Of a stretch of DNA of 64,000 nt, positions 1 to 64,000 are shown piece by piece; the first letter of the stretch is position 1, and every line of letters begins with the position of its first letter. Under the pieces are notes generated by a model. It was given only the letters and a program-made list of their open reading frames with translations, was not told the DNA's origin and made no database searches. Made by a program: the position numbers and the translations under genes. This DNA is from Deinococcales bacterium (lineage in GTDB: Bacteria; Deinococcota; Deinococci; Deinococcales; JAAFIG01), in contig JAAFIG010000022.1 in assembly GCA_013298595.1 (NCBI GenBank), positions 7,192 through 71,191 on the forward strand, read 5' to 3'.

Positions 1-370
1 ACGCCACAGCTTGTTCACGGATGGTCTCGAGATTGGTTTCGGTTTTGGCTGCAATCCGTAAACACTCTGCTAGCAATTCAGGATGGATTTCCCATTGTTC
101 AAATACTTCCTCGAGTTCATCATCCTCTGGGTTGCTTTCAGGGGTAGCAGAAGTGCCATTTAATGCCAGCAAAGCATTTCTTGAGGCATCATGTTCAGCT
201 TCTTTTTTGCTAATACCGTACCCTTTGCCAAGTTCTGTGCCATTCCAATTAATTTGGCAAATAAAACCTTGATTAGGACGGTTTGCATCGAGAAGTTCGG
301 TGGCAAAAATTAATGCCATATTTTTGGCTTGTGCCAATTCATTTAGTTCAGCTTTAGGAGTGCGGCTCAT
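1..370 (-). CDS. dsRNA-binding-motif (dsRBD) protein, partial (runs off the window start)
   Basis: My own translation from ATG at 370 gives MSRTPKAELNELAQAKNMALIFATELLDANRPNQGFICQINWNGTELGKGYGISKKEAEHDASRNALLALNGTS... The GxG-SKKEAE-x4-A-x3-AL stretch is the canonical dsRBD signature. The frame stays open to base 1, so it is missing from the ORF track. Confidence 0.6.
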   Translation of the reverse strand, partial: MSRTPKAELNELAQAKNMALIFATELLDANRPNQGFICQINWNGTELGKGYGISKKEAEHDASRNALLALNGTSATPESNPEDDELEEVFEQWEIHPELLAECLRIAAKTETNLETIREQAVA

Positions 371-423
371 CAATTCCTATTCTACGCGTTCAAACGGACT
401 CAGATTCAAGGTACAATAGACAA

Positions 424-1086
424 ATGGAAGAACGCTCAATTCAGATACTTTTGGTGGACGACCACCCAATCGTGCGTAAAGGCACCAAAGAAATGCTCGA
501 GCCTTACGCAGATTTAACTGTTATCGGCGAAGCCGCTGATGGTCGAGAAGCCCTAGCCTTTGTCAATGCTACCCGTCCAGATGTGATCCTGATGGATGTA
601 TCCATGCCTGGTATGAACGGCATCGATGCCACCAAGCAAATTAAACAGCACCACCCAAGCGTAGCAGTTCTGGTCTTAACCAGTTTTGACGATGATGCCT
701 ACGTTTTTGCGTTGCTCGAAGCTGGCGCAGCTGGGTATATTCTCAAAAATGCTCGAGAAGAAGAACTCATTAATGCCATCCGAGCTGTTTACCAAGGCGA
801 AAGCGCCTTGCACCCAAGCATTGCCAAAAAAGTATTAAATCGCTTCTCAGCGCAACCCACCGAAAGTTTTGATGGTGAAGGTTTATCGCCCCGAGAACTC
901 GAGGTTTTGCGTGCCGCTGCCAGTGGCAGTACCAACAAGGAAATTGCCAAGGTTCTGGATATTTCACCACGCACTGTACAAGTGCACCTTGCCAATGTGT
1001 TTTCTAAACTTGGTGTAGGCTCGAGAACCGAAGCGGTATTGTTTGGTATTAAACGCGGTTGGATAGACCCTAGCACTGTTGGGTAA
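424..1086 (+). CDS. NarL/LuxR-family response regulator (REC + LuxR HTH)
   Basis: REC motifs are ILLVDDHPIVR, DVILMDVSMPGMNG and VLVLTS. The C-terminal LuxR HTH reads LSPRELEVLRAAASGSTNKEIAKVLDISPRTVQVHLANVFSKLGV. Confidence 0.9.
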   Translation: MEERSIQILLVDDHPIVRKGTKEMLEPYADLTVIGEAADGREALAFVNATRPDVILMDVSMPGMNGIDATKQIKQHHPSVAVLVLTSFDDDAYVFALLEAGAAGYILKNAREEELINAIRAVYQGESALHPSIAKKVLNRFSAQPTESFDGEGLSPRELEVLRAAASGSTNKEIAKVLDISPRTVQVHLANVFSKLGVGSRTEAVLFGIKRGWIDPSTVG

Positions 1087-1126
1087 ATTCTATAAGCAGA
1101 TTTTTCCTCGCATAAAGAGGTTATTC

Positions 1127-1972
1127 ATGGATGGCATCACTTTTCAAGCAGCCATTGATTTTGATTTTTCAAAGTTAGCCAGTATTTTTACGGCTGGTTT
1201 TCAGGGGTATTTTGTCAAAATTGAATTAACAGCTTTGATGCTCGAGCTGATTTGTCGAACCGAATCCAGCGACCTCAGTAGTGGGTTGGTGGCTATTCAT
1301 CACAATCAACCAGTAGGTATTTTAATGTTAGCCAGACGCGGGTGGACGAGTCGAATTCATGCAATGGGTGTGATTCCCGAGTATCGTGGACAAGGTGTTG
1401 GACGTTTGTTGCTTGAACAGTGTATTGCCAGTGCTCGAGAACGTGGTGATAAATTCTTGAAACTCGAAGTGATCGCAGCCAATACACAAGCGCAGCACTT
1501 GTACGCAGCTCGTGGTTTTCAGGTACAGCAAAAACTGGTTGGTTTTCAACGTACTTCTCAGCCAGATTCGTTTCACTCAGCCCATATTTTACAAACCATT
1601 GATACCCTTGAATTCGCTCATATTTTGCGGCTCGAGTGCGATGTGTTGTTGCCGTGGCAATTGCAACCAGAAACCCTTGGTTCCTATGTCGCTCCGACCC
1701 ATGCACTTGGTCTTGATAACAAAGCATTTGTTTTACTCAGCCATTCAAATAATCACACCACCAGTACAATTCGGGGTTTGATTGTCCGCAAGGATTTTCG
1801 AGGTTTGGGTTGGGGTACTAAGTTGCTACAAACACTCTTTACCCAGTATCCCAATCGCGCTTGGAATTTCTCGCCTATTTTCCCAGATGGTTTAATGAAT
1901 GGTTTTTTGCAACGACACGATTTTACCTTAAATCCGATTGAACAATTTGAAATGTGGCTCGAGTGCACCTAG
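1127..1972 (+). CDS. GNAT-family N-acetyltransferase
   Basis: Acetyl-CoA motif A is present (RGQGVGRLLLEQCIASARERG, LKLEVIAANTQAQHLYAARGF). A second degenerate GNAT half follows (RGLGWGTKLL). I moved the start to the ATG at 1127, which is preceded by AAAGAGG. Confidence 0.75.
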   Translation: MDGITFQAAIDFDFSKLASIFTAGFQGYFVKIELTALMLELICRTESSDLSSGLVAIHHNQPVGILMLARRGWTSRIHAMGVIPEYRGQGVGRLLLEQCIASARERGDKFLKLEVIAANTQAQHLYAARGFQVQQKLVGFQRTSQPDSFHSAHILQTIDTLEFAHILRLECDVLLPWQLQPETLGSYVAPTHALGLDNKAFVLLSHSNNHTTSTIRGLIVRKDFRGLGWGTKLLQTLFTQYPNRAWNFSPIFPDGLMNGFLQRHDFTLNPIEQFEMWLECT

Positions 1973-2006
1973 TCATCAAAATAAGATGGTGCTGCAAAAA
2001 GCTTGA

Positions 2007-2288
2007 TCACAACTCGAGTTGCACAGTCACTTCGTCGCCTTCCTCGAGTTTTTCTGCCTTGCGGATATTTGCCCGAATCGGCACGATATAACTGTCATTT
2101 TGCGGAAACAAAGAAGTTTTCCACTCGGTATTGCCAATTCGTGCAGTTACTGGAATCATTCCCCAGCCGTATGTGACAAATTTTGAGGCTGCTTTTAATT
2201 CGTGGCATTGCTCGGCTGCAACTGTCACAAAATACCACGGCGCAGGACCACGCCAGTACCAAATTTTATTAGTGAACTCGAGTTTCAT
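2007..2288 (-). CDS. DUF1905 domain protein
   Basis: The 93-aa sequence WYWRGPAPWYFVTV...GWGMIPVTARIGNTEWKTSLFP...YIVPIRANIRK matches my recollection of the DUF1905 family pattern. Confidence 0.7.
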   Translation of the reverse strand: MKLEFTNKIWYWRGPAPWYFVTVAAEQCHELKAASKFVTYGWGMIPVTARIGNTEWKTSLFPQNDSYIVPIRANIRKAEKLEEGDEVTVQLEL

Positions 2289-2841: not shown

Positions 2842-2899
2842 ACTCAGAAAAAGTGGGTTAAGTTCACGTTTTTTTCAAAGTTTTCCGTTAGGCTAATGT

Positions 2900-16525: not shown

Positions 16526-16798
16526 ATGCGGCGAATCACTTCCCAAGAAATCCCAGCCAATGCCATACTTGTGGACATCCGCGATGACCTCGAACGCAGC
16601 GCAGTGCCAATAAACTCGAGCTTTCAATCAATCGCCATTGCCTTAATCGAACTCGAGGATGGCAACCCAGTCCTGCCCGATAACACATTGGTCGTGGTGT
16701 GCAGCACAGGACGGCAATCCGAGTACGCTGGAGCCTTACTTGTCGCATTAGGCGCAAATGAAGTGCTGATACTCGAGGGTGGTATCAGGGGCTTATAA
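16526..16798 (+). CDS. Single-domain rhodanese-like sulfurtransferase
   Basis: The sequence ILVDIRDDLE...VVVCSTGRQSEYAGALL contains the active-site Cys loop. I took the start at the internal ATG. Confidence 0.7.
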   Translation: MRRITSQEIPANAILVDIRDDLERSAVPINSSFQSIAIALIELEDGNPVLPDNTLVVVCSTGRQSEYAGALLVALGANEVLILEGGIRGL

Positions 16799-17614
16799 GT
16801 TCTTGGTGGCATGGTATTGCTGTCCGGGCGTGAAACCATAGACCGCTTTGTACTGACGAATCAGGTGACTTTGGTCATAAAAACCTGTTTCGGTGGCAAC
16901 CTGAGCAGGGTGCTGACCACGAATAATTTTGGCTCGAGCCAATTGCACACGGCGCAGGGTTTGGTATTGATGCAAGGATAATCCTATGGCTTGCTTAAAA
17001 ATTCTGGTTAAGTAAAAATGAGTCAGTCCGACTTCTTGGGCTATTTCTTGTAAGGTAATGTTTTTGGCTAGGTTTGATTCAATTATTTCTTGGCTGCGTT
17101 TGACTGCTTGGTGTTCTAAGCGCTTGGTGATTTGAACTGGTTTGGTGTTGGTGTGTTGCACAAAAAAAGCAACCAGTGTTTCAAGTAAAAGACTTTGTTG
17201 GGTCAGCAATGAATTGGGTTGCTCAAAGGCTTTGTGCATTTGCAAAAATTGTTGTGCCAAAACCTTATTTTCGGCGGTAGCAGCATTAAAACGGGGTAAT
17301 TCACGAAATCCCGCGCTGGCTAAGATGCGTTGTACAAAATCACTGGTTGGATAAATGGCACGGTAGACCAATGGGATTGTTGAAGCAGAATATCCAGTGT
17401 GAATATCTTCTGGGTTGACCATCATTAAGTTGCCTGTTGGTGAAATCACTTTCTTGCCCAGATACGTCAGACCTTCAGTACCAGCCTCTACTAAACCTAG
17501 CATGTATTCTTCATGGCTGTGTGGTGCAAAAGCATGATTGGTAAATGAAGCCCGTAGAATATCAAAATCCCCTAGCTGTTGGATTCGCCAAACTTTGGTT
17601 TTATCGGCTTGCAT
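16793..17614 (-). CDS. AraC-family transcriptional regulator (cupin-like N-domain + HTH)
   Basis: The C-terminus reads ITLQEIAQEVGLTHFYLTRIFKQAIGLSLHQYQTLRRVQLARAKI...GFYDQSHLIRQYKAVYGFTPG. Confidence 0.9.
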   Translation of the reverse strand: MQADKTKVWRIQQLGDFDILRASFTNHAFAPHSHEEYMLGLVEAGTEGLTYLGKKVISPTGNLMMVNPEDIHTGYSASTIPLVYRAIYPTSDFVQRILASAGFRELPRFNAATAENKVLAQQFLQMHKAFEQPNSLLTQQSLLLETLVAFFVQHTNTKPVQITKRLEHQAVKRSQEIIESNLAKNITLQEIAQEVGLTHFYLTRIFKQAIGLSLHQYQTLRRVQLARAKIIRGQHPAQVATETGFYDQSHLIRQYKAVYGFTPGQQYHATKNL

Positions 17615-20863: not shown

Positions 20864-20952
20864 AACTTCACATTGCGACCAATTGTTGATTTAAAACGTA
20901 CTAGAACCTCGAGGTGTACTCGAGATTGGTTAAGTGTTTTCAAAGGAGTTGT
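20861..20952 (+). promoter_or_regulatory. Conserved leader, copy 1 (duplicated at 22545..22637)
   Basis: The sequence is taaaacttcacattgcgaccaat...cgtactagaacctcgaggtgtactcgagattgg..aagtgttttcaaaggagttgtATG. The flanks are nearly identical to copy 2. Confidence 0.6.
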
Positions 20953-22365
20953 ATGAAAAAAGTTATTGGGTTGGTTATTGGAGCGGCTTTGATAATATGT
21001 ATGCCAAATGCTGCGGGGCAAATGAATTCGGCTTTTGAAAAAGTGGCTTGCCCAGCAGAAATAGTGGCTACCATGTGCGGCTTTGTCAGTGTGCCAGAAA
21101 ACCGAGCAAAACCCGAAAAGAAAATTAAGCTTTTTGTGACCGTCTCTAAAGCCAAATCTGAAAAGCAAGAACCCCTATTTTTCTTATCTGGTGGACCTGG
21201 TGAGTTTGGCGCTCAGTACGCTGCTCTTGCACCCATTTTCCCCTCTCGAGATCTGGTTGCGTTCGATCAACGCGGTATTGGTCAATCATTACCTGCACTG
21301 AATTGTGTTGATGAAACAAACAGCAGTGACCTTGATACTTCAGACGCTTTGAAGTTATACACTGCGTGTGGTGAACGTTGGAAAAGCCAAGGCATTGATT
21401 TAACTGCTTATAACGCGACTGAAAGCGCAGCCGATGTCAACGATATTCGTCTGGCACTGGGTTATGAGAAAATCAGTTTATACGGCATTTCTTATGGTAC
21501 TCGGTTAGCCCAAGAAGTGATGCGAACCTTTAGTCCAGTTTTAAAAAGCGTTGTTATTGATAGTGTTATTCCACCACAAATTGATCGCAGTGCCGACACA
21601 ATGTATAGCATTGATGAATCACTCAAAAAAGTATTTGCAACCTGCAAAGCCCAAACGAACTGCAACACCAAATACCCTAATCTCGAGGTGACGTACCAAG
21701 ATTTATACAACAGTTTGAATATTAAGCCTTTAGAAGTGGTGTTGGGTAAGCAAAAATTTCAATTAAATGGCGATGCCATGCAAGGCTTTATTTTTACAAG
21801 TTTATACAGCGCAGATGGCATTGCTGAATTACCACAAATTATCAGTAACCTCAAAGCAGGTAAAAGTACAGCTTTACAAGGTTCATTTATTGAACAATTT
21901 GTGGACAGCGTTAATTCAAGTATCTCGTTCGGTGCTTTTATAACGCACGAATGCCGAGGCGAAATTGCTTTCTCGAGCATCGAAAAACTCAGAATTACGT
22001 ATGCGGCTTTGCCACAATGGGCAAATTTCTTTAGAAACGCCGTTGGCATGGCAAGTGAAAATATTTTTGGTTTATGCCAGAACTTGGGTTTAACTGTTCC
22101 TAGTGGACTCGAGAATACAGCTGTAACCAGCAATGTACGAACTTTACTGATAGCTGGTGAATTTGATCCTGTCACACCTGTGCGTTACTTATCGGTTGCA
22201 CAAGCTGGCTTAAAAAATAGTGTTAGTATCGAAATGAAAGGTTCAGCGCATGCTGCTTCTTTAGCAAATTTGTGTGGTGTACAAATTATGTTAGCTTTCT
22301 TCACGAATCCTGATGCAACACCCGATTCGACTTGTGCTAGTCAGGGTCGTATTGCTTTCAAGTAA
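20953..22365 (+). CDS. Secreted alpha/beta hydrolase (proline iminopeptidase / tripeptidyl-peptidase-like)
   Basis: It has a signal peptide, an oxyanion region (FLSGGPGEFG) and the nucleophile elbow GISYGT. The C-terminal half is Cys-rich. Confidence 0.7.
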   Translation: MKKVIGLVIGAALIICMPNAAGQMNSAFEKVACPAEIVATMCGFVSVPENRAKPEKKIKLFVTVSKAKSEKQEPLFFLSGGPGEFGAQYAALAPIFPSRDLVAFDQRGIGQSLPALNCVDETNSSDLDTSDALKLYTACGERWKSQGIDLTAYNATESAADVNDIRLALGYEKISLYGISYGTRLAQEVMRTFSPVLKSVVIDSVIPPQIDRSADTMYSIDESLKKVFATCKAQTNCNTKYPNLEVTYQDLYNSLNIKPLEVVLGKQKFQLNGDAMQGFIFTSLYSADGIAELPQIISNLKAGKSTALQGSFIEQFVDSVNSSISFGAFITHECRGEIAFSSIEKLRITYAALPQWANFFRNAVGMASENIFGLCQNLGLTVPSGLENTAVTSNVRTLLIAGEFDPVTPVRYLSVAQAGLKNSVSIEMKGSAHAASLANLCGVQIMLAFFTNPDATPDSTCASQGRIAFK

Positions 22366-41408: not shown

Positions 41409-41456
41409 ATTGTCAATGCAGTGTAAAAATCAGACATTTACCATTGCACTGACAAT
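41409..41456. promoter_or_regulatory. Imperfect 15-bp inverted repeat inside the sugar ABC operon
   Basis: The arms are attgtcaatgcagtg and cattgcactgacaat, with 2 mismatches. It lies between the ATPase stop (41467) and the second binding-protein gene. Confidence 0.3.
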
Positions 41457-41466
41457 AGTTATACTT

Positions 41467-42219
41467 TTATGTTGCATTGGGGACATTAGGCATGACACCA
41501 CCGATAATCATGCCAAGCACTTGGTCATGGTTGACATCTTTGGTGTTGACTGTACCAACCACTTTGCCGTTCTTCATGACGGTACAACGGTCAGCTAAGT
41601 CAAAAACATCGTGTAAATCGTGACTAATTAAAAAAATGCCTACACCTTCAGCTTTGAGGGCAGCTATTAATTCAGATACTTTAGCAGTTTCTTCTGGTCC
41701 TAAGGCGGCTGTAGGTTCATCCATAATCAGCACTTTGGCTTTGAAATACACTGCCCTTGCAATTGCCACGGTTTGTCGTTGACCACCGCTCATATTTTGC
41801 ACAGGTACGCGTAAACTCGGGATTTTGACTCGTAATCTGTCTAGTACTTTACGAGCTTCGATTTCCATTTCGTCTTCGGATAAAACAATGCCATTGACTT
41901 TTTCGCGCCCAAGAAAAACATTTGCCACAGCATCCAAATTATCTGCTAAAGCCAGTGTTTGATAAATGGTTTCGACACCGTGGCGCTGAGAATCCTGAGG
42001 GCTACGAATTTCGACTTCTTGTCCAGCAATTTTAATGCTGCCAGAATCGGCTTGGTACGCTCCAGAAAGCACTTTGATCAGTGTGCTTTTGCCAGCACCA
42101 TTATGCCCAAGTAAACCCACCACTTCGCCTGGTCGTAGATTCACCGAAACATCATCCAGTGCTTGGTTACCACCGAAACGCAAGGAAATATTGTTCATTT
42201 CGATAATTGGAGTAGTCAT
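41467..42219 (-). CDS. Sugar ABC transporter ATP-binding protein (single NBD, 250 aa)
   Basis: It has Walker A (GHNGAGKST), the signature MSGGQRQ, and Walker B ([11 protein letters not shown]). Confidence 0.9.
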
Positions 42220-43457
42220 TAACGACCTCCTTTACGACGATTACTAATCGAATTCCACAGCACAGCCAGCAGCAACACAATGCCTAAATAAATTTTTTGT
42301 TGCTCGGTTCGTACACCCACCAAACCAAGTCCGTTCTCGAGGCTACTCATCAGTAGTGCTCCAAGGGCAGCGCCAAGAATTGTGCCACTACCGCCCGATA
42401 GAACTGTCCCACCAATTACTGCTCCTGCAATAACTGTCAGCTCGAGATCACGTCCTAAGGTTGGTGTGGCGCTGTTTAAACGTGCGGCTTGCACTGCGCC
42501 TGCAATAGCAGTTAAAAACCCCATCAGCATGAAAATGTAAACCATCATGCGTTTAACGTTAATACCAGCGAGGTTTGCCGCTTCTGGGTTACCACCAATA
42601 GCAAAAATGTAACGCCCAAAGCGTGTGGCTCGAGTCATCCAATTTAAGTAACCAAGTACAGCCAGTGCAATTAAGGTTGGTACGGGCATACCACTGGCAA
42701 CAGCTGGAATGTTGTCCACACCTGTTCCAGGGACGTTGTAACTGTTCATGACGATCACAAATGCCAGAATCAGCACTGTGGTCACACCAAGTACTAAAGC
42801 TTCTGCCCAAACGGGTCGAACTGAAAATTCGTTTCGTTGCCGTCTGACCCGTCCAGTGAGGGTTTGCCAAACAACAAAAGCAATAATTGCCAGCCCAATA
42901 ATCCATGTCCAAGTGGCACCAATTGAACCGTTAATACCACCACCCAGAATTTGAAAGGTTTCGTCGAGTGGTCCAATGGTAAAACTCGAGACACTAAATG
43001 TGCCGTTGCGAAATACCAGCATTCCTGCCAATGTGACCACAAAGGCGGGTACGCCCCAAAACGCAGATAAGTACCCGTTAAAAGCACCAATCAGTACGCC
43101 AACAGCAATACCAATCAGCACTGCTAGAATCCAGTTTAAGCCTGCACCTATTGGTGGTGGGGCTTGTAACAACGCCATAATCATGGCAGTAAAACCCAGC
43201 ACACTACCAACACCAAGGTCTATTTGTCTGGCAACAATCACCAGCACCATACCACCAACCATGATGCCAACCACTGCGGTTTGTGCGGTTAAAGTCCAAA
43301 GGTTACGTGGTGATAAAAAAATGCCACCACTCCAAATTTGAAAACCAATCCAAACGACCACCAAAGCCAACAGCAACGTTAAGAGTTGATTATCTACTCC
43401 TAAGGCTGCCAGTAACGAGCGTCGCTCGGGTGGGCGATTTTTTTCTGCGTTCTGCAT
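42219..43457 (-). CDS. Sugar ABC transporter permease (XylH-like)
   Basis: It has about 10-12 TM helices and is of the BPD_transp_2 type ([27 protein letters not shown]). Confidence 0.85.
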
Positions 43458-43489
43458 AAAAACCTCGAGGGAAACTTGCTATGAGTTGT

Positions 43490-43533
43490 TTCAATTAAAA
43501 CAGGCGGATACGCTACTCTCAGCGTATCCGCCC
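43490..43533 (-). terminator. Intra-operon hairpin / partial terminator after the first binding-protein gene
   Basis: On the minus strand, the 12-bp stem GGCGGATACGCT..AGCGTATCCGCC is followed by TGTTTTAATT. Confidence 0.55.
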
Positions 43534-43545
43534 GCAGCTTTTAGC

Positions 43546-44604
43546 TTACTTGCAAACTGGTACGAGGACTTTATTAACGCCTTTGCACAAAACGTCTTTT
43601 TTGATCCAACCAGCGTCAAGAACCAAATTGAGGTTCTTACGGGTAATGCCGACTGGTGCAAGAAGTGTCGAGTTCATAGCGACTTTCTTTGGACCATCTT
43701 TAAAGATTTTGGTGCCTTTGATGGCGCTGAGGGCTGTACCTTTAGCCAGTTGCAATGCAATATCGCCTGCGGCTTTACCTAAAGCGCGTGAATCTTTCCA
43801 GACCGAAACGGTTTGGGTTCCAAGGGCAACACGGTTAAGTGCGCCAAGGTCGCCATCTTGACCTGAAACAGCAACTTTACCAGCCAATTTAACAGCAGCT
43901 AATGCAGCAATCGCGCCACCTGCCATACCATCGTTGCTGCTCATGACTGCATCAACTTTGTTGTTGATACGGGTCAGAATTTGTTCCATGTTGCGTTGTG
44001 CATTTTCTGGCTTCCAGCCTTCGGTAGCTTGTTCGCCAACAACTTTGATTTTGCCACTCTTGATGCTTGGCTCGAGGATTTCGCGTTGACCACCGTAAAC
44101 AAAGCCTGCATTGGCATCGCCTGGGTCACCACGAATGAATACGAAATCGCCTTTTGGTTTGACCTTGAGTACTTCTCGAGCCATAATACGTCCAACTTCG
44201 ACGTTATCGAATGTCAAGTAGTAAGCGTAGTTATCTTCAACCAAACGGTCGTAAGCAAGGACTGGGATTTTTGCGGCTTTGGCAGCAGCGATAGCTGGTC
44301 CGATTGCGTCTTTGTCTTGGGCAAGCAAAATAATGGCTTTTGCACCTTTGGAAATCAGAGTGTTGACATCGTTAATTTGCTTTTCAGCGCTGGATTGAGC
44401 GTCGGTGCTGGCATATTCTGCGCCAGCAGCTTCGAGAGCGCCTTTAATGGCAGCTTCGTCTGTCTTCCAGCGTTCTTCTTGAAAGTTTGACCAGCTTACG
44501 CCAACCACAACTTTATCCATTGTTTGAGCTGTTGCGCCGAGGTACACACCACCAAGTAAACCGAGTGACAGTGCGCCGATTGCTCCTAGTTGCCATTTTT
44601 TCAT
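43546..44604 (-). CDS. Sugar ABC transporter substrate-binding protein (XylF-like)
   Basis: It has a signal peptide and the XylF-like block [29 protein letters not shown]. Confidence 0.85.
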
Positions 44605-48538: not shown

Positions 48539-51500
48539 TTATGACCGATCCGAAGAACGGCGCTTAGGTGGTGGCGGTAACTCGAGTTCTTCGCCAAGTA
48601 AATAGGGTTTACCCGCTGCTTTAGCGTTATACATACGATTATCGGCAAGAGATTGCAACTGATCTAAGTTGCTGGCTTCGTTTGGGTATGAAGCCAAACC
48701 AATATTTAACAAAATTTTGATATCACCATCAAATTCCATTTGTTCAATAGCACCCACAATGTACATCAGCAACTCAAGGGCTGCTTGTTCGGGCGGGATA
48801 ATCAAAGCAAATTCATCACCACCTGTTCGGTAAGCTTTATGACTGGCACGACCAAGTTGATTGGGTCCACTGGCAAGCACTTTTGCCACTCGAGCCAGAA
48901 CAACATCGCCAGCCGCATGTCCGAATTGATCGTTGACTAACTTAAAACCTGTTAAATCTATGGCTGCTAAACCAAAGTTTTGATATTGCTCAAGGCTGCG
49001 TTGCAAATCTTCATCAAAAGCTCGACGGTTACGTAAATTGGTTAGTGGGTCAAACCGCGCAGCTCGTTCGGCTTGGAATCGTAAGAATTCCATCTCGCTG
49101 GCTTTACGCTCGAGTTGTTCGTGTAGTAAAACATTTTCTAAAGCTGTGCTGATTGGATTACTCAGGCTGACAATCATGGCTAAATCTGATTTGGTTAATG
49201 GTTGCTCGAGTGTAGATTCAATATTTAATGTACCTAAAACCCCAACTGAACCTTTTAACGGCACAGCAATCAACGAAACCAAGTCGGGCGAAGCCACAAT
49301 AAAATCGGGATCTTTTCTGCCATCAGTAATCAGTTCGGGTGTACCTGAACGGGCAACTCGACCAATCACACCATTGGCTAATGGCACTTCAAAATACGGT
49401 GTGGGAATACCAAGTTGCCCTTGTAAACGCAAGGTTTGCCCCTCAAGTAAATACAAACTACTATGCTGAAAACCAAGGGCATCTTCTAAAACATGAAGCA
49501 CTGCTCGCACTAAGTCTGGTAAGCTCCGCAAACGCGCAACTTCTTGACTGATACGCGTTCGCACCCGTTCATCACGCAAACTAGCCCGTTCTCGGACATA
49601 TAATCGTGCATTCTCGAGGGCGATACTGGCAAGGGCAGCAAAGCGTTCTAAAGTTTCTAAATCGTAAGAATCAAACCGTGCAACAATAGCGGTGTCGGCG
49701 AGGGTTAAAGCACCAATCACATTTTTACCTTGGCGTAAAGGCACACTGGCGACACTGCGCCACGGCGAAACAATATCGGCTGCTCGCAATTCCCAAATCT
49801 GATAATCTTCGATCAGAAGCAGTTCACCAAGTTCTGCCACCTGTCCAGACACACCTGTACCCAAAGCAAAACGCGTTTCAGGAAAGTCTCCGATACCCGC
49901 AGCTAAAACAATTTCTTGATGCTCGATTAAAAACACACCACCAGCATTAGCACCCAGCAACGCCGAGGCGCGTTCCAAAATACTCGAGAGTAAAGCTTCG
50001 GGTTCTAAATTCTTACTAACCTCTAAAGACACTTGGTATAACGCCTCGAGTTGCCTGGCTCGAGCTAACGCTTTACCTTCTGCGTGACGAGCATCGTCGA
50101 GCAACTGAGCGCGTTCCAAAGCAATACTGGCACTGGCAGCAAATCGCTCGAGGGTATCTAAATCGCTATCCGCAAAACGGTATGTATTTTGGGTATCGGC
50201 AATCACTAAAGCCCCTGTGATTTCTTTGCCACGCTTTAACGGTACCGATAACACAGATTGCCAAACACTTGCACCACGACGACCCGCTTGAGTCCAATTT
50301 TGATAATCATCAATTCGTAATGCCTGACCTGTCAAAGCTGTGACACCACTGGCACCATATCCTAAAGGCATAATAGGACTGGCACTAGCCCCAATTGTGG
50401 CAGCTAAATGCAATTCCTCGAGTTCAGATTGCAACAAATACAACCGCCCAGCATGTGCTCCAAAAAGCATCACTGCTCGCTCGAGAATACTCTCTAAAAG
50501 CATATCTAATTCGATGTAATGCCCAAGTTCTAAATTAATTTCATGTAAAGCTTCCATCAGTGCAGTGCGTTCCTGAGCACTCTGCTCGGCAACTCGCAAG
50601 GAATCAAACAACCGCGTGGTCTCGAGAGCAGCACTGGTTGCTGCGGCAAAACGTTCTAAAGCTTCAAGATCATTAGCATCAAACCGATTGGTGGCTCGAG
50701 TATCAGCAATGGTTAAAGCACCAATCACTTGATCTCCACGCCATAACGGTGCGCTCATAGCAGCTTGCCATGAGACAATTTCGTTATCACGAATATCTTG
50801 CCCATCCCAGTTTTTGTAATCCTGCACCACTCGAGCTTGTTGTTGCACAATCACTTTGCCCGATAAACCTTCACCTAAAGTACCAGAAACACTCGGACTT
50901 TCCCCATGCACTGCAACCCGTTCAAACAAATTGCCACTGACCAGATAGACCGCGCCAGCATCGGCAGAAAACAAGGCTGTGACTCGATCAACCACTTGTT
51001 GCAACATTGCACTTGGTTCAAACTGCCCAGCCAATGCCAAACTGGTCTGGTACAACGCCTCGAGCAAACGTGTCTGACGCTGATTATGCAAACTGGTCTG
51101 CTCGGCTTTTTCCAGTAAGGCAGCATTCTCGAGGGTCACATTGGCAACTGCTGCAAAACGCTCGAGACCCACTAAATCTTCGGGTTGAAAACACATTGGA
51201 TTTGTGGTGTGTGCCAATGTTAAAGCACCAATCACTTTGCCGTCCAAATGCAATGGCACAGATAAGGCAGCTTGCCAAAGTGGTGAAATTTCGTTAGCGG
51301 GTTTTCCATCCCACGCTTGATACTGATTCATTAATAACGGTAAACCCGCAGCAATAACCCGCCCCGATAAACCATGATCTAAAGTAATGATTTGTTGAAC
51401 ATTGGGGTCAGTCAAATCGGTCGAAGCTCGAATTGTTCCATCAGCTTGCAACATATACACCGAACCAGCATTGGCTCCAAGTAAATTCGCTGCTCGTTCC

Positions 51501-53149
51501 AACAAAGAACGCAACAACTGCTGACTAGGAACATGCCGAGTCACAGCTAAACTTGCCTGATGTAGTGCCTGCAATTGATTGGCTTGCACTCGAGCACGTT
51601 GTTCAGCTTGGCGTGCCGCATCGAGTAACAAAACATTTTCTAAAGATAAACTAGCAATAGCCGCAAACCGCTCGAGCACAGCGACATCTGCAACTGTAAA
51701 ACGCTCTGGGAAACGCGTATCAACAATGGTTAAAGCACCTAGTACATGCTGTTGCCAACGAAGTGGCACACTTATTACTGCTCGCCAATCCACACCTGGG
51801 TCGTTGCCATTATAAAAATCAGAGAATTCATGGTTGCCAAGTAAAATTGGCTCGCCATTTTGCGCCACCCGACCCGAAACCCCGTACCCCAATGGTGCTC
51901 GAGGTACAAGTTCATCGCCATAATCGGCAAGTAAGCGAATTTCATCAGCTTCACGCAAGTAAATACCACCAACGTTCGCGCTAAACAAAGCCACCACCCG
52001 TTGCAATAAATCGTGCGCTACAGCCTGCACATCTTGTGTATTACCCACTTCGACTTGGGTTTTATACAAAGCCTCGAGCAAACCAGCCCGATGCTCGGCT
52101 TCAGAACGTGCCGCTCGAGCTTCAACATACAACCGAGCATTCTCGAGTAAACCCGCAACAATCGGAGCTATTTGTAAAACAAAATCAACATCTTCGTTAT
52201 CAAACTCTAAGCCATGATGACGCTCAAAAAACACCACACCAATTCGGATATCGCCATGTAACAAAGGCACAGCAATCAAACCCTGCAAACCAGCATCCAC
52301 ATATCCAGAGATAGCCAAAGGATGTTCAGGATAGTAATTGAGTAACAATGGGGTGCTATGCAAAGTTGCTTGCAATAACACCTCATGACCAGAATGCAGC
52401 AAACCCACAGTTACATCATCAGCATCCACAACCAACTCGAGTCGCTTAGAACCGTCACGCAACAAAACCAAACCACCAACAGCTTCAAGCATCACCCCAG
52501 AACGCCGAATTAACTCATGCAAAGCTGCAAACGGCTCGAGCGAAGCAATAATCTCAGAAAAATGCTTTTGCAATTGCTCACGGCGCACTAAACGAGATTC
52601 TGATATACGCTGTTGTTGCTCCTGAGCTGCGCGTAAACTCGCATTTTCTAGGGCTACACTTGAAAACGCTGCAAACCGCTCGAGCAACAACAACTGCTCT
52701 GATTGGTACGCCGCAACTTGTTCATCCCAAATCGCCATCAAAACCCCAAAAACACGTCCGCCACGACGCAAGGGGGTCGCAATCATCGAACGTTGCAAAC
52801 CAGCATACCGAGCACTCCGCAACGCCGACGCTTGATAATCATCAATCAATACCGACTCGCCATGCCCAAAAACCCAACCGCAGACCCCTTCATCAGGCGC
52901 AAATCGCTGTCCCACTCGAGTAATTAACTGCCCAACGCCATGACGCATCTCGAGGCTACCGTCGGGCAAACCAACATACACGGCCGCCGAAGTGCCACCA
53001 CAAAAACGCAGCACCCCCTCAAGCAACCGCACAAATAGCTCTGCATCATTTTCCTGAGCACCAAGTGTCAATGTCAATTGATGCAGCAACTCAAGCGCCT
53101 CGAGGCTCGAGTTATTTTGCCACCGCACCACCGAAGACGACACAGACAT
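48539..53149 (-). CDS. Multi-GAF (about 8 tandem GAF domains) diguanylate cyclase (GGDEF)
   Basis: GAF modules repeat, each ending in a ...LERFAAxxSxALENAxL linker. The C-terminus has DPLTNLRNRRAF...RTGGDEFALI. Confidence 0.9.
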   Translation of the reverse strand: MSVSSSVVRWQNNSSLEALELLHQLTLTLGAQENDAELFVRLLEGVLRFCGGTSAAVYVGLPDGSLEMRHGVGQLITRVGQRFAPDEGVCGWVFGHGESVLIDDYQASALRSARYAGLQRSMIATPLRRGGRVFGVLMAIWDEQVAAYQSEQLLLLERFAAFSSVALENASLRAAQEQQQRISESRLVRREQLQKHFSEIIASLEPFAALHELIRRSGVMLEAVGGLVLLRDGSKRLELVVDADDVTVGLLHSGHEVLLQATLHSTPLLLNYYPEHPLAISGYVDAGLQGLIAVPLLHGDIRIGVVFFERHHGLEFDNEDVDFVLQIAPIVAGLLENARLYVEARAARSEAEHRAGLLEALYKTQVEVGNTQDVQAVAHDLLQRVVALFSANVGGIYLREADEIRLLADYGDELVPRAPLGYGVSGRVAQNGEPILLGNHEFSDFYNGNDPGVDWRAVISVPLRWQQHVLGALTIVDTRFPERFTVADVAVLERFAAIASLSLENVLLLDAARQAEQRARVQANQLQALHQASLAVTRHVPSQQLLRSLLERAANLLGANAGSVYMLQADGTIRASTDLTDPNVQQIITLDHGLSGRVIAAGLPLLMNQYQAWDGKPANEISPLWQAALSVPLHLDGKVIGALTLAHTTNPMCFQPEDLVGLERFAAVANVTLENAALLEKAEQTSLHNQRQTRLLEALYQTSLALAGQFEPSAMLQQVVDRVTALFSADAGAVYLVSGNLFERVAVHGESPSVSGTLGEGLSGKVIVQQQARVVQDYKNWDGQDIRDNEIVSWQAAMSAPLWRGDQVIGALTIADTRATNRFDANDLEALERFAAATSAALETTRLFDSLRVAEQSAQERTALMEALHEINLELGHYIELDMLLESILERAVMLFGAHAGRLYLLQSELEELHLAATIGASASPIMPLGYGASGVTALTGQALRIDDYQNWTQAGRRGASVWQSVLSVPLKRGKEITGALVIADTQNTYRFADSDLDTLERFAASASIALERAQLLDDARHAEGKALARARQLEALYQVSLEVSKNLEPEALLSSILERASALLGANAGGVFLIEHQEIVLAAGIGDFPETRFALGTGVSGQVAELGELLLIEDYQIWELRAADIVSPWRSVASVPLRQGKNVIGALTLADTAIVARFDSYDLETLERFAALASIALENARLYVRERASLRDERVRTRISQEVARLRSLPDLVRAVLHVLEDALGFQHSSLYLLEGQTLRLQGQLGIPTPYFEVPLANGVIGRVARSGTPELITDGRKDPDFIVASPDLVSLIAVPLKGSVGVLGTLNIESTLEQPLTKSDLAMIVSLSNPISTALENVLLHEQLERKASEMEFLRFQAERAARFDPLTNLRNRRAFDEDLQRSLEQYQNFGLAAIDLTGFKLVNDQFGHAAGDVVLARVAKVLASGPNQLGRASHKAYRTGGDEFALIIPPEQAALELLMYIVGAIEQMEFDGDIKILLNIGLASYPNEASNLDQLQSLADNRMYNAKAAGKPYLLGEELELPPPPKRRSSDRS

Positions 53150-54859: not shown

Positions 54860-55726
54860 CTATTTCAATCTCGAGATGGGGTCGGTTAATGCTCCGAGGA
54901 CATCCATGACAACTTTTGGTCTGCCTAATGGGTAAAGGTGCACACCAGATACGCTGGCTTGGCGTAAATCTTGGACGATTTGTTTTGCCCACTCGAGACC
55001 AGCTTTTTTGCCGTTCTGCTCGAGGTCTTGTAGTAGTGCGGATGGTACGGTTGTCCATTTGGCAACACGCACTGCCATCTCGAGATTACGAATCGGTAGA
55101 ACTCCGAATAATACAGGAATACTGGGTTGCACAATGTCGAGGAATCGGTGCACTGTGTCGATGTCAAAGACTGGTTGGGTTTGGGCAAAATGCGCTCCAG
55201 CAGCAACTTTTGCTGCGAATCTTTCGCGCTCGAGTATCAAATCGGCTGCGCCTGGATTGGCAGCCACGGCAATACTAAAATTGGTTGGCTCGAGGTCACG
55301 CCCTGCTTTGGATTGACCATTATTTAAGCTGCGAACAATGCTGGCAAGTCCAACCGCATCCACTTCAAAAACGCCTTTGGTATCAGGGTGGTCGCCTCGT
55401 TCGGGTGGGTCGCCACGCAAACACAAAATGTTTTGCACCCCAAGCGCGGCAGCGCCTAATAATTCGGATTGCAAACCCAGAATGTTACGGTCACGGCAAG
55501 TAAAATGGGCAATCACCTCGAGTCCTGTGCGTTCTTGCACAAGTTTGGCTGCGACCAACGGACTCATTCGCAAATTGGCTTGTGGACTATCGGAAATATT
55601 GACTGCATCCACATACCCACGCACCGCTAAGGCTTCCTCGAGGGTTTTGGTGGGGTCGCTGCCTCGAGGTGGGTCGAGTTCGGCTGTGACCACAAACACC
55701 TTACCAAGTTTATCGATTAGTTTCAT
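54860..55726 (-). CDS. metF: Methylenetetrahydrofolate reductase
   Basis: The sequence VVTAELDPPRGSDP...VDAVNISDSPQANLRMS...HFTCRDRN is the MTHFR pattern. The gene overlaps the upstream gene by 4 nt. Confidence 0.85.
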   Translation of the reverse strand: MKLIDKLGKVFVVTAELDPPRGSDPTKTLEEALAVRGYVDAVNISDSPQANLRMSPLVAAKLVQERTGLEVIAHFTCRDRNILGLQSELLGAAALGVQNILCLRGDPPERGDHPDTKGVFEVDAVGLASIVRSLNNGQSKAGRDLEPTNFSIAVAANPGAADLILERERFAAKVAAGAHFAQTQPVFDIDTVHRFLDIVQPSIPVLFGVLPIRNLEMAVRVAKWTTVPSALLQDLEQNGKKAGLEWAKQIVQDLRQASVSGVHLYPLGRPKVVMDVLGALTDPISRLK

Positions 55727-56991
55727 TGGCTCACCAACGCACTTTGCAGTGCAGCCTCGAGGGCTTGACCAAAATCGGTTTGTAAATCTTGTACATCCTC
55801 GAGTCCTACCGAAACCCGAATGGTTTCAGGAGCAACCCCTGCGGCGCGTTTACCCGCTTCGGGCAAACGCCCATGTGTGGTCGTCCACGGATGCACCACC
55901 ATTGTACGCGTATCGCCGAGGTTAGCTGCATGACGCACCAATCGTAAACTGCTGATAAAAGCGCTAGCACCAGCTTGTCCACCTTTGACACCAAAGGTTA
56001 AAACGGCTGGATGATGGCGCAAATATTTTTTGGCTAAATCATGATGCTCGTGACTGGCTCGGCTCGAGTGATTGACCCAAACCACCCCAGGATGCGTCTC
56101 GAGCCACGCAGCTAAATCGGCAGCATTGCTGCATTCTTTTTGTAAACGCACCGCCACGGTTTCTAAACCAAGATTGATTTGCCAAGCACTGGCAGGTGCC
56201 AGTGTCATACCCATTTGGTGCAAACCAATGAACCGTGCTCGAGTGATAAATGCCATTTCGCCAAGCCGAGCATTCCAACTTGTACCACTGGCATCAGGTT
56301 CGGAAAGTGTTGCACTGCTCGAGATAAATCCTTTACGAGCCAATACCGCACCACCCAGCACCGAACCATGCCCAGCTGCCCATTTGGTCAGGCTATGCAC
56401 CACCACATCGGCACCAAGCTCGAGCGGACGACACAAATACCCAACTGCACCCCAAGTGTTATCGACTACCAACGCAATACCAGCGGTTTTACAAACCGCA
56501 CTGATGGCAGCAAAATCCGGAATATCCCCAGCTGGATTACCAATTGTCTCGAGTAAAACAAGACGGGTATTGGTTTGAATCGCGGTTTGAATTTGCGTGG
56601 CATCGTTCGGTACCACACTCGAGGTGATACCAAAATTGGGTAGCACATTTCGTAACAAACCAAGGCTACCACCAAACAAACTACTGGTTGCCACAATATG
56701 ATCGCCAGCTTTACACAAATTAATCAAAGCCAGCAAAGTCGCTGCTTGCCCAGTTGCCGTGACAACACAGCCCGCAGCGTTCTCGAGCGCTGTTAAACGC
56801 ACCTCGAGTGCCTCTGTGGTTGGATTCTGCACTCGGGAGTATTGCAAACCCTCTACGCGCCCCTGAAAAACATCGGCAGCATTCTCGAGTGAATCAAATT
56901 CAAAGGTAGCTGTTTGCTGAATTGCCAAACCCACACCTTGCCCCTCAACTCGAGACAAACCAACATGCACCGCATTGGTATCAAATTCCAT
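55723..56991 (-). CDS. metY: O-acetylhomoserine/O-acetylserine sulfhydrylase-family PLP enzyme (MetY-like)
   Basis: It is a Cys/Met-metabolism PLP fold with the PLP lysine region VVHSLTKWAAGHG and DNTWG. Confidence 0.8.
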   Translation of the reverse strand: MEFDTNAVHVGLSRVEGQGVGLAIQQTATFEFDSLENAADVFQGRVEGLQYSRVQNPTTEALEVRLTALENAAGCVVTATGQAATLLALINLCKAGDHIVATSSLFGGSLGLLRNVLPNFGITSSVVPNDATQIQTAIQTNTRLVLLETIGNPAGDIPDFAAISAVCKTAGIALVVDNTWGAVGYLCRPLELGADVVVHSLTKWAAGHGSVLGGAVLARKGFISSSATLSEPDASGTSWNARLGEMAFITRARFIGLHQMGMTLAPASAWQINLGLETVAVRLQKECSNAADLAAWLETHPGVVWVNHSSRASHEHHDLAKKYLRHHPAVLTFGVKGGQAGASAFISSLRLVRHAANLGDTRTMVVHPWTTTHGRLPEAGKRAAGVAPETIRVSVGLEDVQDLQTDFGQALEAALQSALVSQ

Positions 56992-60715: not shown

Positions 60716-61846
60716 ATGCCCGAAGTTGTATTGCCTTTATTCCCAGATTTTCAGCTTTCAAATGCCACGCATTTCCGATTTGCTGATATTTTCGCTGGCA
60801 TTGGCGGAATGCGCTTGGGTTTTGAAGCGACTGGTGGGCAATGCGTTTTTTCATCAGAATGGGATGTATATTCCCAAAAAACCTATTTTGCCAATCATAG
60901 TGATTACCCCAAAGGCGACATCACCCAAATTCCCTCGAGTGAAATCCCAGATTTTGATGTGTTACTGGCAGGTTTTCCATGCCAACCATTTAGCAGCATT
61001 GGTTTACGCCAAGGCTTTTTACACCAAACCCAAGGCACATTGTTTTACGAAATTGCCCGTATTCTCAAAGATAAAAAACCACTTGCATTCTTGCTCGAGA
61101 ATGTCAAAGGTTTACTCAGCCACAATAACGGCGAAACCATGCAAATTATTCTCGAGACACTCAGCGAATTGGGTTACACCGTGCAACACCAAGTGCTGGA
61201 TGCCTCGGAATTTGGCGTACCCCAAAAACGCGAACGCATTTACATTGTCGGCTATAGAACAACAGCTTTCCTCGAGAAACCACAATTTAGCTTTCCCAAA
61301 GCCACAAAAACCGATGTCTACATTGGGCAATTTATTGAATCCAATGTGACAGGTTACGAAATTTCCGAGCATTTACAAAAAACCTATATCTTCAAAAAAG
61401 ACGATGGCAAACCCGCCATTGTTTCACCAGACTCGAGCATCCAAATCAAAACCCAAGTGGCTTCGTATCATAAAATTCAACGCTTAACTGGCACTTTTGT
61501 ACGCGATAGCAAAACAGGTTTACGATTACTAACCGAAAACGAATGCAAAGCCATCATGGGATTCCCAAAGCATTTTGTATTCCCAGTCTCGAGAACCCAA
61601 ATGTACCGACAGATTGGGAATTCGGTAGCTGTACCCGTGATTATAGAAATTGCTCAAGCTACGCGAAAACAGATTATTGGAAAAAACGTGAACAAAAAAT
61701 TATTGATAGAAAGGGCAAACACGAGGTTTGCCCCTACGAAAACACAATCCAAAAAAGAATTTTTACATGTAGGGGCGATGCTTGTCATCGCCCTGCTTTT
61801 ACATCCAATGCAATGGTCTACCCTTGCCCACGCGGTACTCGCATGA
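60716..61846 (+). CDS. DNA (cytosine-5)-methyltransferase, with no adjacent restriction gene
   Basis: Motif I is FADIFAGIGGMRLGFE, motif IV GFPCQPFS, motif VI FLLENVKGL, motif VIII PQKRERIYIVG and motif X RQIGNSVAVPV. The last ~45 codons read through two REP hairpins. Confidence 0.9.
   Translation: MPEVVLPLFPDFQLSNATHFRFADIFAGIGGMRLGFEATGGQCVFSSEWDVYSQKTYFANHSDYPKGDITQIPSSEIPDFDVLLAGFPCQPFSSIGLRQGFLHQTQGTLFYEIARILKDKKPLAFLLENVKGLLSHNNGETMQIILETLSELGYTVQHQVLDASEFGVPQKRERIYIVGYRTTAFLEKPQFSFPKATKTDVYIGQFIESNVTGYEISEHLQKTYIFKKDDGKPAIVSPDSSIQIKTQVASYHKIQRLTGTFVRDSKTGLRLLTENECKAIMGFPKHFVFPVSRTQMYRQIGNSVAVPVIIEIAQATRKQIIGKNVNKKLLIERANTRFAPTKTQSKKEFLHVGAMLVIALLLHPMQWSTLAHAVLA
61713..61793. repeat. 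Convergent pair of REP-like hairpins inside the 3' end of the methyltransferase ORF
   Basis: Position 61713..61737 is gggcaaacacgaggtttgcccctac (minus orientation). Position 61769..61793 is gtaggggcgatgcttgtcatcgccc (plus orientation). The architecture matches 4448..4515. Confidence 0.8.
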
Positions 61847-63054: not shown

Positions 63055-63121
63055 GAATCTACCTTCTTCTTGTATCAGAAATCACAATAAACTTGAGTCT
63101 ACTTGTGTTAGATTATGCAAC

Positions 63122-63367
63122 ATGGAACAGAACTTCTCGGAGATTATGAAACAACTCAAAGCCCAACATGCCGAAAACCTGCAACAAATGCCATTGCCAC
63201 CCGGAGTAGAAGACTTCCTCAAAGCCAAAATCCTCGAGCAGGATGTGGAAACAGTAACATTTATGCTTAAACTTGCATGGGTTTTTGGAGCACAAGCAGG
63301 GCAGCAAGCTGTGGCTCAAGCGCAAGTGCTCGAGACTCAACCTCGTAAAAAGCGTATTGAAGCGTAA
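63122..63367 (+). CDS. Hypothetical small protein (81 aa)
   Basis: It is a clean ORF followed by a strong hairpin. I recognised no family. Confidence 0.4.
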   Translation: MEQNFSEIMKQLKAQHAENLQQMPLPPGVEDFLKAKILEQDVETVTFMLKLAWVFGAQAGQQAVAQAQVLETQPRKKRIEA

Positions 63368-63395
63368 ACTCGAGTAGAACAACAGGATAAAAAAT

Positions 63396-63430
63396 AAGAA
63401 GTGCTCGAGGTATTCCCTCGAGCACTTCTT
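63396..63430. terminator. 15-bp-stem hairpin between convergent genes (contains two CTCGAG copies)
   Basis: The sequence is aagaagtgctcgagg-tattc-cctcgagcacttctt. Confidence 0.7.
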
Positions 63431-63443
63431 TGCTGGTAAAAGT

Positions 63444-64000
63444 TTATGGATTGATCGTTCCTGGAGTTAATGTTGTTACTAATGTCCAATCAGTATTTGC
63501 ATTATTGGTATCCAAACCGACAGATGAACGAGCTAATGCACTATTTCCTACTCCTGAATCTAAAGCTACTAGAGCTGTACCCTCAACCAAGTTTACAGTG
63601 CCCAAAAAACCTGTGATTACTGCGGCTGTCACACTACCTTCATAACTGAGCGCATCTAATACTGTAAGTGCAACTGTATCAATCAGGGCAATTCCATCTG
63701 GAGCACCGTTTTGAATTCGGTCGGTTTGCACGGCTCCTGCAAATCGGATAACCCCAGCCGAAACGGGAACAGTTACATTAGTAGAAGCTACGACGAGATA
63801 ACCACCTGCTGGAATGCTTGAAACACTTCCTAAGCTGACTCTCAAGTATTCCGCATTGCCGTTACCATTAATAAAAACAAGTGCCAAATTTGCAGTTGAA
63901 ATAGCAGAACTTGTAGGATTAAAAATCTCAACGTATTCAGTCGAATCTGGATTAACACTTTGGTCATAATCAACTTCGTTAATAACTAAGCCACTCGCTG
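63444..64000 (-). CDS. Lamin-tail-domain (LTD) containing protein, partial (5' end beyond the window)
   Basis: The minus frame stays open to base 64000 and reads ...ASGLVINEVDYDQSVNPDSTEYVEIFNPTSSAISTANLALVFINGNGNAEY...IQNGAPDGIALID. INE.DYD..EYVEI.N plus GAPDGIAL is the LTD pattern. Confidence 0.65.
   Translation of the reverse strand, partial: ASGLVINEVDYDQSVNPDSTEYVEIFNPTSSAISTANLALVFINGNGNAEYLRVSLGSVSSIPAGGYLVVASTNVTVPVSAGVIRFAGAVQTDRIQNGAPDGIALIDTVALTVLDALSYEGSVTAAVITGFLGTVNLVEGTALVALDSGVGNSALARSSVGLDTNNANTDWTLVTTLTPGTINP

Follow-up and report, generated by a model that had tools for sequence, protein, structure and literature searches.

Highly iterated palindromes (HIPs) have been a puzzle for thirty years and have been studied in one phylum only, the Cyanobacteria. 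HIP1 (GCGATCGC, built on a CGATCG/GATC core) and the alternate HIPs (GGGATCCC, TCGATCGA, and CAGGCCTG) are short, GC-rich palindromes over-represented by tens of fold. They spread by substitution through coding and non-coding DNA without a flanking element, are conserved between orthologs above background, and are spaced non-randomly; they are also limited to certain lineages, with some members lacking them, and variants one base off most often differ at an outer position. We analyzed a 64,000-nucleotide stretch from a Deinococcales bacterium (assembly GCA_013298595.1, contig JAAFIG010000022.1; hereafter, the window), in which the hexamer CTCGAG resembles the cyanobacterial HIPs in all of these respects. 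It is therefore best filed in the HIP class, of which it constitutes a second, independent case, and it differs from the known members in phylum, word, length, density, and a measurable cost to proteins. We lean, with moderate confidence, toward the view that CTCGAG is a HIP-like, lineage-wide signature kept by recognition of the whole site, probably in connection with methylation.

CTCGAG occurs in Deinococcota, is a hexamer and not an octamer, and has no GATC core; HIP1 proper is not what the window carries, as CGATCG appears in it once and the organism belongs to the Deinococcales. At 6.3 copies per kb it is approximately six times denser than HIP1, at approximately 1 per kb (PMC4390886), and unlike HIP1 it leaves a footprint on proteins, a 2.5-fold over-representation of Leu-Glu. 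HIPs co-occur with cognate methyltransferases (PMC4390886), which for HIP1 are DmtA and DmtC; neither the window nor approximately 190 kb of DNA from its clade yielded a counterpart for CTCGAG. HIP1 sites are moreover conserved and follow a periodic distribution over 10–90 kb (PMC5861425). CTCGAG is itself a known methylation target. In Nocardia, where an orphan CTCGAG methyltransferase serves a non-restriction role, its sites are clustered at the origin of replication, in the spacer between dnaA and dnaN (Blow et al. 2016, PMC4752239), whereas the sites of the same 6-bp word are here evenly spread. Halorubrum carries 5-methylcytosine (m5C) in CTCGAG (PMC8112702), and a preprint on hot-spring epigenomes describes methylated CTCGAG in a host-phage group whose phylum its text does not state. 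We found no prior description of CTCGAG hyper-abundance in the searchable literature, and Elhai (2015) does not mention the word.

The window contains exactly 402 copies of CTCGAG, approximately one per 160 bp (mean spacing, 158 bp), and every 1-kb bin holds at least one. At a GC content of 46.5%, base composition predicts 13, and 100 dinucleotide-preserving shuffles of the window gave 6.0 ± 2.4 (maximum, 12). Markov models of order 2, 3, and 4 predict 27, 126, and 339 copies, respectively; the latter two figures are circular, because CTCGA and TCGAG counts derive almost entirely from the motif. With the motif masked, the background expectation falls to 4.6 (order 2) or 6.6 (order 3), and the excess is thus approximately 60- to 80-fold, beyond the roughly 15-fold or more that marks a HIP whether the comparison is made with the masked background (5–7) or with the shuffles (6). 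Measured against a conservative codon-aware null the excess is still 12.8-fold, and seven independent clade loci are likewise enriched.

This excess is confined to the exact palindrome. CTCGAG is the commonest hexamer of the window, threefold above the next, and the seven hexamers that follow all overlap it. Its 18 one-mismatch neighbors number between 0 and 24 copies each (CTCGAA, 24; TTCGAG, 19), with 79 copies mismatched at the outer positions 1 and 6 versus 40 and 45 at the inner ones. Transition neighbors lie 1.6- to 3-fold above the masked background and transversion neighbors at or below it. Although the background expectations are similar, CTCGAG outnumbers each of the 18, transversions as well as transitions, by at least 9-fold, which argues for a force that favors the complete hexamer over every alternative. 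Among words unrelated to the motif, the commonest hexamers are AAACCA/TGGTTT, CACCAA, TTGCCA/TGGCAA, and AAAACC/GGTTTT, with 80–100 copies each.

The sites are bare. No base exceeds 33% at any of the six flanking positions on either side (−6 to −1 and +1 to +6), and among 10-mers that include the motif even the commonest has only 10 copies; the sites are therefore not copies of a longer repeat. Using a gene map built from long open reading frames and corrected with Pfam and ortholog evidence, we obtained a density of 6.28 per kb for coding DNA and one of 6.29 per kb for non-coding DNA, with approximately 367–375 sites in genes and approximately 35 between them. Genic sites are divided between both strands (198 in genes on the minus strand and 169 in genes on the plus strand) and all codon phases (227, 77, and 71 in phases 0, 1, and 2, respectively). 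Shuffling synonymous codons, with proteins and codon usage preserved, yielded 30 ± 5 sites (maximum, 46) versus 375 observed in coding sequence. Where Leu-Glu is encoded it is written CTC-GAG in 69% of cases; elsewhere CTC accounts for 7% of Leu codons and GAG for 20% of Glu codons. The force behind the excess operates at the level of DNA and on the exact palindrome, and not on codons, peptides, RNA, or a mobile repeat. The original prediction, made from the window sequence alone, had put the count at about 404, had noted that CTCGAA and TTCGAG are few, and had described an excess independent of frame, strand, and coding status; these statements agree with our counts. Three outcomes that would have told against it did not materialize: the count is not near expectation (402 versus about 6), the sites are not confined to one phase or dipeptide, and, given their uninformative flanks, they do not all belong to one longer repeat.

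The pressure on DNA extends into the encoded proteins. Leu-Glu occurs 330 times in the window versus 133.5 expected (2.47-fold), with Glu-Leu at a ratio of 1.00, and Val-Glu, Met-Glu, Phe-Glu, and Leu-Lys are depleted. For polarization we aligned MetX and MetY, the products of the motif-densest genes, each with approximately 50 motif-free outgroup homologs. At most CTCGAG positions the outgroups lack Leu-Glu and have instead VE, IE, ME, LK, MK, AK, LD, or GE; at phase 1 and 2 sites, outgroup PKG or PQG corresponds to PRG in the clade, VKA to TRA or VRA, and YPG to HSS or HTS. The best Protein Data Bank (PDB) match of the window's RuvB is Thermus thermophilus RuvB, which differs at three of the six ruvB sites (LR to LE, VM to LE, and TPR to TSR), the other three being synonymous at conserved residues. 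In 238 of 260 site-by-partner comparisons the CTCGAG site fell in an ungapped alignment column, and the sites therefore arise by substitution, without a mobile repeat or indels, as HIPs do. These alignments show that many sites arose by conservative amino acid replacement, and the proteins themselves have thus been altered.

Sites are also retained. Across four orthologous genes compared between clade members (nucleotide identity, 58–83%), a phase-0 CTCGAG was found unchanged at the orthologous position of the partner in 54% of cases versus 15.5% for other hexamers; where the encoded amino acids were identical, the hexamer was identical in 74% versus 27%. In these four genes, then, the sites are conserved between genomes above background. 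Sharing of positions would reflect either descent or repeated re-creation, and on either account the site is actively favored. Very close locus pairs, taken for a polymorphism test, were identical in sequence. Spacing is more even than chance allows: the coefficient of variation is 0.795 versus 0.99 ± 0.05 under random placement (0 of 2,000 trials as low), gaps below 25 bp number 16 versus 47 expected, gaps above 300 bp number 42 versus 58 expected, and the gap distribution as a whole departs from random with a chi-square of 48 on 8 degrees of freedom. The only periodicity among the sites is the 3-bp codon period, with no helical (10–11 bp) phasing found in the window. Nor do the sites cluster at an origin, either in the window or in the clade loci that span dnaA-dnaN, where 1 site in 312–343 bp represents an ordinary or lower density.

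We asked how the trait is distributed among relatives. The window's MetX and MetY are 77% and 65% identical, respectively, to proteins of OZ252252.1 ("Deinococcales bacterium"). Its locus comprising a methylase and an RlmL gene is syntenic with metagenomic contigs, one of which encodes an enolase 92% identical to that of a "Deinococcales bacterium" metagenome-assembled genome (MAG) and 73% identical to that of Deinobacterium chartae. By these protein comparisons, the relatives place the window in an uncultured Deinococcales lineage. Scored by CTCGAG against the codon-aware null and by the observed-to-expected ratio of Leu-Glu (Table 1), the trait is lineage-specific, graded, and independent of GC content, and it peaks in the lineage of the window; loci whose MetX shows at most 47% identity have CTCGAG at background. 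Taken over the whole clade, enrichment runs from 6.6- to 14-fold at GC contents of 46–63%.

Table 1. CTCGAG and Leu-Glu enrichment in the window and in related or reference DNA
Source	GC	CTCGAG relative to codon-aware null	Leu-Glu observed/expected
Window	46.5%	12.8-fold	2.46
Other clade loci	47–61%	6.6–13.9-fold	1.8–2.8
Deinobacterium chartae (cultured)	66%	3.2-fold (z = 12)	2.2
Oceanithermus	68%	2.2-fold	1.37
Allomeiothermus	65%	1.8-fold	1.13
Trueperaceae MAG	75%	2.0-fold	1.96
Thermus	70%	0.5–0.7-fold	1.1–1.2
Deinococcus	63–66%	0.4–0.5-fold	0.9–1.2
L127 (GCA_965191025.1)	47%	0 copies in 21 kb	1.47

The D. chartae locus (L126; GCA_014202645.1, JACHHG010000008.1) has 76 copies in 21 kb, making CTCGAG its commonest hexamer; 30 of the 76 lie in the octamer CCTCGAGG, its commonest octamer, and phase 1 holds none. 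In L127 (contig CBCZNU010000008.1), whose enolase identity is 76% and whose GGCC frequency is normal, the word is absent from the 21 kb examined. Its Leu-Glu ratio is nevertheless raised (z = 3.1), with the dipeptide written TTAGAA or TTGGAA, and this excess may be a protein-level fossil of a trait lost or purged. Thermus was examined as a further HIP-like case and rejected. On T. thermophilus pTT27 (L251 and L254), CTCGAG accounts for 92–93% of TCGA tetramers, and 39 of 45 are CCTCGAGG; CTCGAG is, however, below its codon-aware expectation in this genus, and the pattern is therefore attributed to avoidance of TCGA combined with preferred CTC and GAG codons. The lytic Thermus phage P23-45 (L255) avoids TCGA in every context (29 versus 166 expected).

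How might such a signature be maintained? In the explanation we favor, CTCGAG has entered the chromosome through ordinary point substitutions and has reached a density of approximately one per 160 bp. Most sites are Leu-Glu spelled CTC-GAG; others stem from conservative replacements (Val, Ile, or Met to Leu; Lys, Arg, Asp, or Gln to Glu; Lys or Gln to Arg written CGA; Pro or Thr to Ser written TCG), and in intergenic DNA they arise freely. Existing copies are kept far better than other hexamers and build up until they are spread fairly evenly, few of them less than 25 bp apart. The force acts on the complete palindrome, favoring the full hexamer over all alternatives, and could consist of selection on each site or of a lowered loss of existing sites, as in the methyl-directed ratchet of Elhai (PMC4390886). 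An extra short-range penalty on close pairs would be needed, and could be provided by the tendency of palindromes to form hairpins and supply microhomology; deletions flanked by HIP1 have been reported in cyanobacteria.

The agent would be a protein that reads the whole palindrome. Most likely, by analogy, it is a solitary CTCGAG methyltransferase encoded outside the window, coupled to a process that reads the methylation. Such a process could be the recombination or transformation of DNA that enters the cell, strand-directed repair, or organization of the nucleoid, and sites would thereby confer an advantage or be difficult to lose. Palindromic 6-mers are typical targets of dimeric methyltransferases. 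That CTCGAG is such a word, that HIPs and methylases co-occur, that Nocardia has an orphan enzyme for it, and that Halorubrum carries m5C in it together make a methyltransferase the leading candidate.

Several points weigh against this explanation. No known function readily justifies a density six times as high as that of HIP1. In Halorubrum the word is methylated yet not hyper-abundant (PMC8112702), and methylation alone is therefore not sufficient. Neither the window nor the approximately 190 kb of clade DNA yielded a methyltransferase, reader protein, or nuclease specific for CTCGAG; the sole DNA methyltransferase of the window appears specific for CCGG, so that the methylation step is pure analogy. 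The frequent sharing of positions could reflect sites created anew and independently at conserved Leu-Glu pairs rather than descent, and a simple retention ratchet does not predict even spacing. The sample, finally, comprises 64 kb of this genome and loci of 1.3–21 kb from its relatives.

A bolder version, which we entertain only tentatively and again by analogy, would treat the mark as a barcode. Here each genome of Deinobacterium and of the uncultured relatives would carry approximately 30,000 CTCGAG marks set by a solitary methyltransferase, and competence, recombination, or repair would read the marks and favor DNA of the cell's own kind, in a convergent counterpart of cyanobacterial HIP1. 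If true, this would mean that a second naturally transformable phylum has a counterpart of HIP1, one that rewrites approximately 1% of all dipeptides. The graded intensity of the trait, the close non-carrier L127, and the cultured carrier D. chartae make the mechanism approachable by comparison and experiment. The case also carries a warning, in that DNA-level pressure in such genomes shapes codon usage, dipeptide composition, and apparent conservation of amino acids.

Because the window does encode a DNA methyltransferase, we considered its specificity. The C5-cytosine methyltransferase at the right of the window (Table 2) is 58% identical to the methylase encoded next to the MspI endonuclease on pMsp22, a plasmid of the strain that produces MspI, and identity to this M.MspI rises to approximately 70% across the target-recognition region. 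In the PDB the match was confined to the catalytic domain of M.HhaI, and the target-recognition region searched alone gave only scattered fragments. The resemblance to M.MspI indicates that the protein is a CCGG enzyme, and with the target-recognition region included in that match it was rejected as the CTCGAG methylase. CCGG is depleted in the window (25 versus 112 expected), which we attribute to the system of this methyltransferase. In the relatives L051–L053, a gene for a 199-amino acid HNH nuclease follows the methylase (L051:10001-11546). The window, L054, and L055 no longer have this gene (L054:6510-7634), and the methylase has in its place a C-terminal extension of approximately 50 amino acids that reaches into the gene behind it. 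As a mobile module, the methylase-HNH pair also occurs in Saccharibacteria, in Cloacimonas prophages, and on resolvase islands, and its hosts in these unrelated phyla have ordinary CTCGAG counts. The adjoining UPF0020 gene was rejected as a DNA methylase, being of the RlmL type of RNA methyltransferase, and no other DNA-methyltransferase signatures were present in the approximately 190 kb of clade DNA.

Among the alternatives to the explanation we favor, the best placed, though unlikely, is that CTCGAG is a signal for DNA uptake or transformation spread by molecular drive, in which site-rich, possibly methylated fragments are favored and recombination spreads the alleles. The uptake signal sequences (USS) of Pasteurellaceae and the DNA uptake sequences (DUS) of Neisseriaceae occur in naturally competent bacteria and are thought to accumulate by drive. 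They too are over-represented short words, fairly evenly spaced, that sit within genes at a cost in amino acids. The even spacing of CTCGAG, with few very short or very long gaps, recalls the likewise even spacing of uptake sequences, and its genic sites impose an amino acid cost as those of USS do. Deinococcota are naturally competent, L127 carries genes for ComEC and ComEA, and a density of 6 sites per kb versus approximately 0.1–0.3 per kb in foreign DNA could separate self from non-self. HIP1, furthermore, has been reported to raise transformation in a way that depends on methylation (preprint 10.64898/2026.06.24.733823). USS and DUS, however, are asymmetric words of 9–12 nt that occur approximately once per kb and have known receptors, whereas CTCGAG is a far shorter, 6-bp palindrome with uninformative flanks at 6 per kb, for which no receptor candidate was identified. 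Deinococcus and Thermus, the competent genera of the phylum, show no enrichment, and both are reported to take up DNA without sequence preference.

Less probable still is a role for CTCGAG as the binding site of an abundant dimeric protein engaged in nucleoid association, condensation, or segregation, with selection acting directly and without methylation. This proposal accommodates the whole-site palindrome, the even spacing, and the equal density of coding and non-coding DNA; the deficit of gaps below 25 bp would fit a protein footprint, and HIP1 has been suggested to contribute to the structure of the nucleoid (PMC5861425). Helical phasing at 10–11 bp is nonetheless absent, no candidate protein was found, and a window of 64 kb is too short for a periodicity of 10–90 kb. 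In cyanobacteria, an electrophoretic mobility shift assay is reported to have given no HIP1-binding complex.

A drive based on very-short-patch repair, in which an m5C methylase would act on CTCGAG and a Vsr-like nuclease would restore C at T:G mismatches in CTTGAG and TTCGAG, we regard as highly improbable. Vsr is known to bias E. coli toward CCWGG, an m5C methyltransferase gene does lie in the window, and in relatives a small HNH nuclease is paired with it. The Dcm/Vsr system of E. coli also offers a general parallel, as a DNA-level process at a methylase target that shifts oligonucleotide frequencies. There, however, the effect is small and the T-variant is depleted, whereas here the excess is approximately 60-fold and the T-variants are enriched 1.6- to 2-fold over the masked background (TTCGAG/CTCGAA, 43 versus 22–26 expected; CTTGAG/CTCAAG, 29 versus 17–18). 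The methyltransferase is M.MspI-like with CCGG as its target, its HNH partner has been lost, CTCGAG counts are normal in unrelated hosts of the module, no gene for Vsr was found, and a bias at one position cannot make all 18 neighbors at least 9-fold rarer. The original prediction had offered several mechanisms; its DNA-level drive or selection and its analogy to HIP1 stand, whereas its Vsr/Dcm-type repair drive does not survive the T-variant counts. Its remark that an XhoI-type nuclease would be incompatible with sites left unprotected is sound as a matter of logic.

Finally, a by-product of translation or composition (codon-pair or Leu-Glu preference, or base or oligonucleotide bias) is refuted for the window and retains next to no probability: 59–60% of genic sites are indeed in phase 0, and CTC-GAG usage alone explains the counts in high-GC Thermales, but non-coding DNA is equally dense, phases 1 and 2 hold 40% of genic sites, the synonymous-shuffle expectation is 12-fold too low, Leu-Glu is enriched 2.5-fold and Glu-Leu is not, and the effect holds from 46% to 66% GC.

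The individual features that bear on the sites are collected in Table 2. Every location given in the original prediction proved correct, including the sites in three phases, the tandem repeat, the hairpin, the pair at 20908, and a CTCGAG at 2828 within what had been called a candidate operator. The tandem repeat lies just upstream of a DUF4097 gene (29591..30619) and may be a regulatory array.

Table 2. Features of the window discussed in the text
Feature	Position	Strand	Basis
Dispersed bare CTCGAG, 402 copies	1..64000	.	Counts, shuffles, gene map
Phase-0 site, CTC GAG (Leu-Glu), in response-regulator gene 424..1086	496..501	+	
Phase-1 site, nCT CGA Gnn (x-Arg-x), in response-regulator gene 424..1086	752..757	+	
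Phase-2 site, nnC TCG AGn (x-Ser-Arg/Ser), in response-regulator gene 424..1086	1020..1025	+	
Two CTCGAG 11 bp apart (20908, 20919), immediately upstream of hydrolase gene 20914..22365	20908..20924	+	
ruvB, 6 CTCGAG sites	28433..29410	-	
23-bp tandem repeat TTCTCGAGTAACCAATCTTCATC, three units (89% match), one CTCGAG per unit	29502..29571	+	
Motif-poor stretch over sugar ABC-transporter operon; genes with 0, 4, and 2 sites; longest gap, 1086 bp	41250..44604	-	
metX-metY, motif-densest genes, 9 and 13 sites (~10 per kb); used for ortholog and outgroup polarization	54860..56991	-	
M.MspI-type C5-cytosine methyltransferase (CCGG), outside the CTCGAG system	60716..61846	+	Pfam PF00145, E = 6e-95
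Perfect terminator-like hairpin AAGAAGTGCTCGAGG...CCTCGAGCACTTCTT, CTCGAG in each arm	63391..63428	+	

An AraC-family regulator gene (16793..17614) is likewise motif-poor, with an 816-bp gap. The GC content over this gap and the 1086-bp gap is 42–43% versus 46.5% for the window, and the sugar transporter operon and the regulator, with 0–4 sites per gene, may be more recent acquisitions in which sites have still to accumulate.

Other palindromes are avoided in the window. GGCC occurs twice (35214 and 52982) versus 205 expected, with 0–1 copies in L051 and L054; CCWGG (39 versus 117 expected) and GATC (107 versus 206 expected) are also depleted, and 17 GC-rich 6-bp palindromes have no copies at all. 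Avoidance of GGCC is confined to the low-GC subclade (in part in L065) and is absent from L128 and D. chartae, and it is therefore independent of the CTCGAG trait. No Rfam matches were found in the window, which also encodes, at 48539..53149 on the minus strand, a 1,536-amino acid protein that combines approximately eight GAF domains with a GGDEF diguanylate cyclase domain at its C terminus.

Dense CTCGAG was also seen outside the lineage table, in IMG/VR viral contigs. L155, L183, L211, L218, L229, and L234, together with approximately 40 further loci, carry 3–7 copies per kb at GC contents of 58–73%, and the word is often their commonest hexamer. A blastn search of these contigs against isolated phages returned no match. 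One of them, L155, covers a region encoding tail sheath, tape measure, and baseplate, in which CTCGAG is 3.2-fold over the codon-aware null.

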